Of a DNA stretch of 64,000 nt, positions 32,212 to 34,288 are shown piece by piece. A program made the position numbers and the translations under genes. Source of the stretch: Pseudomonadota bacterium (GTDB taxonomy: Bacteria; Bdellovibrionota_B; Oligoflexia; Oligoflexales; CAIYRB01); NCBI GenBank assembly GCA_031416315.1, contig JANOTL010000098.1:1-64000 (forward strand). The letters are read 5' to 3'. Every line of letters begins with the position of its first letter. Within the stretch, counting starts at the first letter, position 1. The notes under the pieces are model-generated. The model made no database searches. It saw only the letters and a program-made list of their open reading frames with translations, and was not told where the DNA came from.

Positions 32212-32667
32212 TTACTTTTTGGCTTTCGGCTTGGGAGCAGCTTTGGGCGCCGCTTCCTTCTTCGCGGCGGCCGGCTTGGCGGCGGCCGGCTTGGCGGCGG
32301 CAGCGGCCGGCTTGGCGGCGGCTGCGGGTTTCGCCTTGGCGACGCCGGCCTTCTTCTTCGGCGGGGTGGCCGAGGGGGCGACGAAATTCGCGTCGAGCGT
32401 CTTCAGCAGCGCCGAGAGGCGGCCGATCTTACGCGAGGCGTTGTTCTTGTGGATGATGCCTTTGTTGGCCGCTTTGGCCAAAAGCCCTTGGGCTTTGACG
32501 AACATCGGGTTGACCGTGCTCTTCTCGATCGTGCCGGCGGCGGCGCTCGAGACGGCGAGACGCAAGCGTTTCACGGCCGTGCGGACGGCGGTGAGGTACT
32601 GGCTGTTGCGCACGTTCGCGCGGTTGTTGCGACGGATGCGCTTGATGGCCGACTTGTGGTGTGCCAC
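32212..32667 (-). CDS. rpsT: 30S ribosomal protein S20 with C-terminal Pro/Ala/Lys tail
   Basis: MAHHKSAIKRIR...RN...VRTAVK...KGIIHKNNASRK..RL. Confidence 0.95.
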   Translation of the reverse strand: MAHHKSAIKRIRRNNRANVRNSQYLTAVRTAVKRLRLAVSSAAAGTIEKSTVNPMFVKAQGLLAKAANKGIIHKNNASRKIGRLSALLKTLDANFVAPSATPPKKKAGVAKAKPAAAAKPAAAAAKPAAAKPAAAKKEAAPKAAPKPKAKK

Positions 32668-32762: not shown

Positions 32763-33326
32763 CTACGGCCTGAATGCCATGGAGAGCGCGAGCCCGCGGG
32801 TGAGGCCGGTGTTCGCCGCACCCGTCCGGAAGCCCCGCCCGGAGGTCGCCGCGACCGCGTCGAGGCGGCCTTGGTGCCAGCCGACGAAGCCGCCCCAGGA
32901 GATCGTGAGACGCTCGGCGGCGTATGTGCGCCGCTCCCAGCCCAACATGACCCCGTAACCTGAGGATTTGTAGGTGCGCTCGCCGCCAGCGTCCAAAGCG
33001 CTCTCGCTGAAGCGCGAGAGTGCCATCTCGACGGCGACCTTCTCGGTGGCCCGGTAGCTCGCGTAGGGGCCGACGCCGAGCCGGTAGTATTCGGAGGAGG
33101 AGCCGCGGCCGCCCTGCATCATCGTGCGCATGCCGGCCGCGACATCGCCTCTGAAACGGCGGGCGAGGTCGAAGTAGGCGAGGCTGCCTCCGACGTTGTC
33201 GAAGCCCGTCGTCGTGCGTTGGGCGACCGCGTAGCCGACGTGCGCGCCGCTTTCCCAGCCTTCGTAAGCGAGGGCTCGCGGGGCGAGGAGGATCACGACG
33301 GCGATGAGGAGAGTTTGGTAGCGCAT
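32763..33326 (-). CDS. Small outer-membrane beta-barrel-like protein
   Basis: Signal peptide; alternating strands; aromatic residue near the C-terminus. Confidence 0.65.
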   Translation of the reverse strand: MRYQTLLIAVVILLAPRALAYEGWESGAHVGYAVAQRTTTGFDNVGGSLAYFDLARRFRGDVAAGMRTMMQGGRGSSSEYYRLGVGPYASYRATEKVAVEMALSRFSESALDAGGERTYKSSGYGVMLGWERRTYAAERLTISWGGFVGWHQGRLDAVAATSGRGFRTGAANTGLTRGLALSMAFRP

Positions 33327-33406: not shown

Positions 33407-33434
33407 AAAAAGGCCCTCTTGCGAGGGCCTTCTT
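33407..33434 (-). terminator. Intrinsic terminator of the rpsR-rpmB-sORF operon
   Basis: Minus strand AAGGCCCTC-GCAA-GAGGGCCTT followed by a T run. Confidence 0.85.
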
Positions 33435-33436
33435 AC

Positions 33437-33568
33437 TTACTTCTTCTTCTTCGCCGGCGCGGCGGCCGCCTTCGCGGCCTCGATCTTCTTGGCGATGCGG
33501 GCTTTTTTCTTCCGCCATGCCTTGCGCTGACGCATTTTCAGGGAACAACGATTGTCTGCGCGACCCAT
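33437..33568 (-). CDS. Uncalled 43-aa highly basic protein, candidate ribosomal protein
   Basis: MGRADNRCSLKMRQRKAWRKKKARIAKKIEAAKAAAAPAKKKK; AGGGA RBS right after the rpmB stop; terminator directly after its TAA. Confidence 0.75.
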   Translation of the reverse strand: MGRADNRCSLKMRQRKAWRKKKARIAKKIEAAKAAAAPAKKKK

Positions 33569-33580
33569 GATTGATTCCCT

Positions 33581-33808
33581 TCAGGTTTGCTTGGTGCCGA
33601 ACTTACGCACGAACGCGTCGACGCCGATCTTGGTGATCGTCCGGATCGCGGAGGTGCTGACGCGCAGCGAGATGAAGCGCTTCGTCGTCTCGCTCCAGAA
33701 GCGTTTCTTCTGGAGGTTCGGCAAGAAGCGGTGGTTGGTCTTGATGTTGGAGTGGGACACGCGGTGGCCCACTTGCACGCCTTTTCCAGTCAGGCACTTA
33801 CGAGACAT
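33581..33808 (-). CDS. rpmB: 50S ribosomal protein L28
   Basis: MSRKCLTGK....[18 protein letters not shown]...L.VST..IRTI.K.G. Confidence 0.97.
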
Positions 33809-33811
33809 CGA

Positions 33812-34288
33812 TCAATCCTCCCCGCCGTCGTCGCGATCACGACCCCGGCCGCCGCCGCGCGGTCCGTCGTCACGATCGTCTCCGCCAAAGCCGCCGCCGC
33901 CTTCGCCGTCGCCGTCGTCACGGTCGCGCGGGAACGGACGGTCGCCGAAGCGTCCACCGCCCGGGCCACCCATGCGGGGCGCGTCGCGGAAGCCGCCGGC
34001 GTTGGCCGCGGCCATCTCACCGGCGAAGCCGCGCTCCGGACGGTGCGAGACCGCCACGGGCAGGAGCGCCAGGTAGCGCGCGCGCTTGATCGAGAGCGTG
34101 ATGTCGCGCTGCTGCGCTGCGGTCGCACCGGAGATGCGGCGCGGGATGATCTTGCCGCGATCGGTGATGAAACGCTTCAGCGTGTCGGGTTTTTTGTAGT
34201 CGATGGCGATCGACGGATCCAGCGTGCGCTTGCGGCGCAGCATGAAACGACGGCGCTTCTTCTTGGTCGCTTTCGAAGGAATGGGCAT
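33812..34288 (-). CDS. rpsR: 30S ribosomal protein S18 with Gly/Arg/Asp-rich C-terminal extension
   Basis: IDYK....[18 protein letters not shown].....QR.....[11 protein letters not shown]. Confidence 0.96.

Follow-up and report, generated by a model that had tools for sequence, protein, structure and literature searches.

In the window (the whole 64,000-nt stretch of DNA that was analysed) an operon beginning with rpsR is read from the minus strand, and its third gene, after rpsR and rpmB, is a short ORF for a basic protein of 43 residues. From upstream to downstream, the features of the locus are:

33812–34288, minus strand: rpsR (bS18), first gene of the operon, above the Pfam and NCBIfam cut-offs
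33581–33808, minus strand: rpmB (bL28), starting 3 nt after the rpsR stop, above the Pfam and NCBIfam cut-offs
33576–33580, minus strand: AGGGA, Shine-Dalgarno-like, abutting the rpmB TGA, with the ATG 7 nt further on
33437–33568, minus strand: gene of the 43-aa basic protein, by translation, ending in TAA
within 33437–33568, minus strand: conserved head (G2, D5, R7, S/T9)
within 33437–33568, minus strand: predicted basic helix (K11, M12, K16, K22, R24), from the sequence
within 33437–33568, minus strand: variable Ala/Pro/Lys tail, from conservation counts
33407–33434, minus strand: intrinsic-terminator-like hairpin with U5, behind the TAA of the ORF, closing the operon
32212–32667, minus strand: rpsT (bS20), its product ending in an Ala/Lys/Pro tail, beyond the next gene downstream of the 43-aa ORF, identified by Pfam and NCBIfam

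The preliminary description had reported a 43-aa ORF with 18 Lys and Arg residues, an AGGGA ribosome-binding site right after the rpmB stop and a terminator behind the TAA. Translation reproduces that protein (12 Lys and 6 Arg among 43 residues, pI 11.8, 4.9 kDa), the AGGGA lies where it was said to lie, in the 12-nt gap between the rpmB stop and the ORF, and purine-rich counterparts of it are present at most of 30 relatives' loci. The hairpin, GGCCCTC-GCAA-GAGGGCC followed by five U, has a folding energy of -20.9 kcal/mol (z -3.74) that was equalled by none of 200 shuffles, but it is absent from the list returned by a consensus terminator scan. Upstream, priA is divergent from the operon; the region before rpsR folds no better than its shuffles (z -1.2), an Rfam scan of the locus gave one chance match and no leader, and a motif search recognised no 16S 3' end in the assembly. 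The codon usage of the ORF is at the 87th percentile, like that of rpmB, and agrees with a ribosomal-type gene, but as this value is reached by 9% of background simulations it is not significant. One RNA run, in which 0.08 of the sequence words occurred, gave only short pieces, mostly under 90% identity, and so speaks neither for nor against expression. Between the operon and rpsT is an ORF of 187 aa (nt 32763–33326, minus strand) whose start resembles a signal peptide and which matches nothing in Pfam or NCBIfam; by eye, similar ORFs follow the corresponding gene at three loci in relatives (L003, L015, L030).

Conservation of the gene downstream of rpmB in relatives, which the preliminary description had singled out as informative, was found throughout. 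L28 was located in 39 of 41 relatives' genomes, and in each of the best 30 of these 39 loci (30/30) an orthologous ORF begins 9–79 nt behind rpmB. Over codons 2–31, the 435 pairs give a mean pS of 0.78 and a mean pN of 0.36, with one ortholog pair showing a pS of 0.46 and a pN of 0, and the entropy at third codon positions is 1.59 vs 0.89 and 0.90 at the other two. The two other same-strand frames are interrupted by stops in 28/30 and 29/30 of the loci. The 43-aa ORF is a true protein-coding gene under purifying selection.

It belongs to no family represented in the databases searched. The ORF has no match in Pfam, NCBIfam or the PDB sequences; the latter also gave 0 matches for two family profiles, and 26 and 68 members run against Pfam and NCBIfam produced only single-member matches with E ≥ 0.05. 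Although rpmG might be expected at this position, the earlier statement that the ORF is not L33 holds, as the L33 of this genome is encoded on contig C9 and the L33 HMM does not match the ORF. Similarly, S21 is encoded on contig C115 and its HMM does not match, and PF17067 (plant RPS31) was above cut-off in 0/41 relatives. The nearest named protein-atlas clusters (0.89–0.90) are those of DUF6800 (PF20607), carried by 24% and 19% of members; its HMM misses the ORF and all 51 family loci, it was above cut-off in 0/151 genomes, and the term occurs in no paper of the open-licence literature.

Within its own phylum (26-sequence profile, E ≤ 0.01), the family was found in 119/131 genomes, at a single place in each, with G091 adding a weak partial second match; 13 matches, mostly weak, were inspected and all were genuine members. 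A wider profile was used on two further phylum samples of 151 genomes each, those of G134 (a Bdellovibrionia genome) and G132 (a Nannocystaceae genome). In the Bdellovibrionia-phylum sample the family is present in 70/151 genomes, 50 loci of which were inspected, and was not detected in 81/151. The Nannocystaceae-phylum sample gave 53/151 at E ≤ 0.05, or 51/151 after two false matches (weak, in G217 and G275) were discarded upon inspection, leaving 100/151 genomes without detection. In addition, 212 clusters at 50% identity reach E ≤ 0.001 with the family profile. A search of viral contigs, with 4 confirmed stretches but 0 loci, is uninformative as to range. The gene order rpsR-rpmB-ORF occurs in named loci of Oligoflexales, Oligoflexus and Pseudobacteriovorax, and other names bearing the family include Kofleriaceae, Nannocystaceae, Myxococcales, Bradymonadales, Bdellovibrionia and Bacteriovoracaceae; all named members among those listed are annotated as hypothetical protein. 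The protein had been called lineage-specific, and while the family is real, it is wider than one lineage and spans all three of the phylum-level samples on which this distribution rests. No name has been given to this family of three predatory and gliding bacterial groups, and searches of the open-licence literature (subscription journals being outside the coverage) found no description of it.

The 226 loci represent 203 distinct proteins of 30–73 aa with a mean Lys+Arg content of 42% (G131/L069 was left out of the conservation, offset-comparison and gene-order counts). Among 159 proteins with the canonical head, S/T9 is conserved in 99%, K11 in 97%, K22 in 96% and R24 in 91%, the percentages at positions 1–9 being skewed both by the search patterns and by the choice of the canonical set; M12 (72%), K16 (71%, with Arg in a further 15%) and Q18 (69%) follow. 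Such position-specific conservation (S/T9, K11, K22, R24) points to a defined binding site rather than to bulk charge. The D5-x-R7 head is missing in 44/203 distinct members, comprising a Bacteriovorax type and short-head types. Because these headless members retain the stretch from K11-M12 to R24, the inferred helix appears to be the core of the protein and the head dispensable. In three longer matches, P0023, P0080 and P0117, the family helix is joined to a C-terminal region that has no name and contains a motif common to them; among the longer matches, none of P0023, P0080, P0112, P0117 and P0105 has a Pfam domain, so that no informative fusion was obtained, and P0121 was set aside as chimeric-looking.

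Two ribosomal gene orders were observed: rpsR-rpmB-X (X being the family gene), sometimes continued by rpsT, and X-rpsR. The gene is behind rpmB in the 30 best L28 loci (rpsT next in 4), in 28/63 of a separate locus set (rpsT next in 2), and in 2/13 further own-phylum loci, both then followed by rpsT, the remaining 11/13 having no ribosomal neighbour. In 10/50 loci of the Bdellovibrionia-phylum sample it directly precedes rpsR, and in five of these ten the stop and start overlap or are within 5 nt. The genes for S18, L28 and S20 do not adjoin it in 40/50 loci of that sample, in 19/19 metagenome loci, or in any locus of the Nannocystaceae-phylum sample (0/51); 27 other ribosomal proteins sought in the loci tested gave no match. 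Placement in a ribosomal operon, as originally described, is thus a feature of two lineages and is absent from 51/51 loci of the third group. The two orders may stem from a single ancient linkage. Outside these contexts the neighbours include bamA/skp, hppD, amn, shikimate kinase, tRNA synthetases and others.

Some details of these neighbourhoods can be recorded here. At L160, L161, L165, L167, L168, L170, L174, L175, L176 and L204, rpsR and the family gene form a two-gene unit, and the rpsR of these loci has a long N-terminal extension. At L070, L072, L090, L119, L155, L162 and L172, from both wider samples, the gene follows bamA or skp, a position that is possibly ancestral. Kofleriaceae-type loci (L074, L087, L096, L107, L110, L126) have a TATAAG/TATAGA box about 7–11 nt before the ATG and no Shine-Dalgarno sequence, which suggests a near-leaderless mRNA. 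In the metagenome loci L272–L289, a conserved ORF of 95–103 aa lies upstream and one of 158 aa downstream, neither with a Pfam match.

Taken from sequence and gene order, the family is probably a new one of accessory ribosomal proteins, consisting essentially of one basic helix that would lie in an rRNA crevice. It has several traits of lineage-specific small ribosomal proteins, being small, very basic, conserved and single copy, and a further such trait, encoding in a ribosomal operon, is present in two lineages and not in others. The suggestion that the ORF encodes a new or highly diverged small ribosome-bound protein is therefore supported as to a conserved gene outside known families, for which a role in the ribosome is the most plausible reading, and is qualified by a gene link restricted to two lineages. 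The ORF would share a transcript with rpsR and rpmB and be coupled to them in translation, so that its product would be made in pace with the other ribosomal proteins. A basic helix of approximately residues 10–32, which S/T9 may cap, would fold on the rRNA and occupy a crevice between its helices, with K11, K16, K22 and R24 neutralising and stapling these helices and the Ala/Lys tail remaining disordered. The small subunit is the more likely host than the large. If the protein is ribosomal, the pocket of bS22/mS38/eL41 by h44 is the likeliest among named sites, if tentatively so; the pocket of bTHX in the head is an unlikely location, and the chance that the site is neither of these falls just short of even.

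The layout of bS22, with a conserved helix and a variable tail, resembles that of the family, as do its size and pI (33 aa and pI 12.75; PMC10081302), and bS22/mS38 (analogous to eL41) would share with it a basic core of about 30–35 residues that appears to be a single helix. However, bS22/mS38 has an S-V/I-I-K-K start and H15, both of which the family lacks, and PF08213 (COX24_C) matches neither the ORF nor the family. Against the bS22 start, M-G-S-V-I-K-K-R-R-K-x-M, only G2, R7/R8, K11 and M12 agree, and columns 3–5 score negatively. The best ungapped offset is start-to-start, with G2, K11, M12, K16 and K22 in common, a match reached by 2.5% of shuffles at offset 0 and by 41% at their best offset, and hhalign of the family vs bS22 gave a probability of 1.6%, with 22/100 shuffles doing as well; the likeness is not significant. 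In mycobacterial bS22, K16 reportedly touches h44 (PMC10081302); a basic residue at position 16 of the family is common by chance in a sequence so rich in Lys and Arg. According to PMC12123416, bS22 can differ in sequence yet fold alike, and convergence with eL41 has been suggested.

In the Nannocystaceae-phylum sample, bS22 occurs in 39/151 genomes and neither bS22 nor the family in 66/151, and the two overlap in 5/51 family-bearing genomes vs 13.2 expected (Fisher 0.0014, with related genomes not being independent). The five members that co-occur with bS22 are all of the short-head type, one of them sharing a contig with bS22 (in G150), while 0/31 canonical members co-occur. In the Bdellovibrionia-phylum sample bS22 was above cut-off in 2/151 genomes, both without the family, and it was not found in the genome of the window or in 10 well-assembled genomes of its class (0/11). 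The rarity of co-occurrence is suggestive only. A more specific proposal, that a protein combining a head of bTHX type with a helix of bS22 type occupies the decoding-centre-adjacent bS22/mS38/eL41 pocket across the three phylum-level groups, and that headless members tolerate a true bS22 alongside, may be put forward as a rather doubtful one.

Rather than a permanent subunit, the protein could be a sub-stoichiometric ribosome-associated factor, such as an assembly chaperone or a hibernation-type factor. The patchy presence in the wider samples would fit this, as would a gene that, outside the two lineages, is often monocistronic and preceded by a promoter-like region of its own, but coupling to rpsR, rpmB and rpsT would imply growth-linked, equimolar synthesis. 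Hibernation factors are as a rule separately induced, which also argues against a transient factor and leaves this an unlikely reading.

The MGRAD start was previously noted as reminiscent of bTHX, with the rest not matching, a remark that the comparison bears out. bTHX, to which plant bTHXc and bTHXm belong, is likewise small and basic and has the first seven residues M-G-R/K-G-D-x-R in common with the family; of its N-terminal G-x-G-D-x-R, G2, D5 and R7 are present here, with Ala at 4. By hhalign the two align in register over 8 columns (P 0.0005, probability 32%), dropping to a probability of 7% for trimmed profiles without Met, and the likeness was matched by 1/100 column shuffles and 13/2000 best-of-offset shuffles, in a comparison that used 6 bTHX sequences and a canonical set chosen on D5/R7, which inflates the score. 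The likeness is confined to residues 2–7; columns 8–26 score about zero or below, and the bTHX invariants G11, G16, Y18, G19 and P23 are all missing from the family profile, which lacks both G11-K12 and G16-S/T-Y-G-x-x-R-P. Neither bTHX model (PF17070, TIGR04560) matches the ORF, nor any of 68 members (0/68) at E up to 10, and the protein does not qualify as a member of bTHX. A diverged bTHX, in which the head plugs the 30S-head pocket where bTHX is buried at h41/h42 (PMC5737520) and the second half has been replaced by a long helix, would be compatible with the distribution, since bTHX is above cut-off in 0/41 relatives and in 2/151 genomes of the Nannocystaceae-phylum sample, neither with the family. 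Nevertheless, it is improbable, given the missing invariants and a head that has been lost in a fifth of the family while the helix is retained.

Equally improbable is a protamine- or histone-H1-like nucleoid protein, or a general nucleic-acid-binding protein, in a highly expressed operon. Its high Lys+Arg content, its Ala/Lys/Pro tails and the absence of ribosomal neighbours in many lineages are what such a protein would show, but the tails are the variable part, to which the range in total length belongs, and the S20 of this locus bears a similar tail; moreover the fixed positions, including the acidic D5 and the N-cap, argue for a specific pocket. Finally, a chance ORF or non-coding element, as might be suspected from the short length, low complexity and lack of a family match, is refuted by the conserved start, frame and ribosome-binding site, the purifying selection (pN < pS), the 30/30 loci, the 119/131 genomes and the 203 distinct homologues.

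As an accessory ribosomal protein, the family would be one predicted from genomes alone, where the list of bacterial ribosomal proteins grows by single cryo-EM structures (bS22, bL37, bL38, bS24, CLaSP). bL38 (rpmL, DUF4295) of Bacteroidia is a lineage-specific ribosomal protein that, like the family, is small and encoded behind rpmB (PMC11851116), but in that case rpmG intervenes, the protein combines a beta hairpin with a helix and binds uL6, and Pfam scans of family members gave no match to it. Cyanobacterial bS24 was a hypothetical protein until cryo-EM (10.64898/2026.07.03.736309); it is like the family in size and pI and in a layout of one conserved N-terminal basic helix and an unconserved tail, with a conserved basic pair (K9, R20) 11 residues apart, the family pair being K11 and K22. 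The 22-residue extended peptide CLaSP, behind nusB in Coxiellaceae, is unlike the family (10.1101/2025.11.08.686982). For the bacterial groups concerned here no ribosome structure was found in the open-licence literature; cultured members include Oligoflexus tunisiensis and Bacteriovorax stolpii. If the bS22 pocket is filled by the family, this would be another independent way of stapling h44, a site linked to aminoglycoside sensitivity (PMC10081302). The gene is near-universal in its own phylum, yet can be dropped by short-ORF cut-offs.

Several other ribosomal proteins of this genome are unusual in length. S20 (nt 32212–32667) has about 60 surplus Ala/Lys/Pro residues and S18 (nt 33812–34288) about 75 surplus Gly/Arg/Asp residues, in both cases at the C-terminus, and on contig C201 long extensions are also found on S5, L29 and L15. 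On the same contig L5 follows directly after L14, the list of ORFs showing no L24 in the interval, and S14 (C201:58720–58989) is 89 aa long yet retains its Cys motifs.
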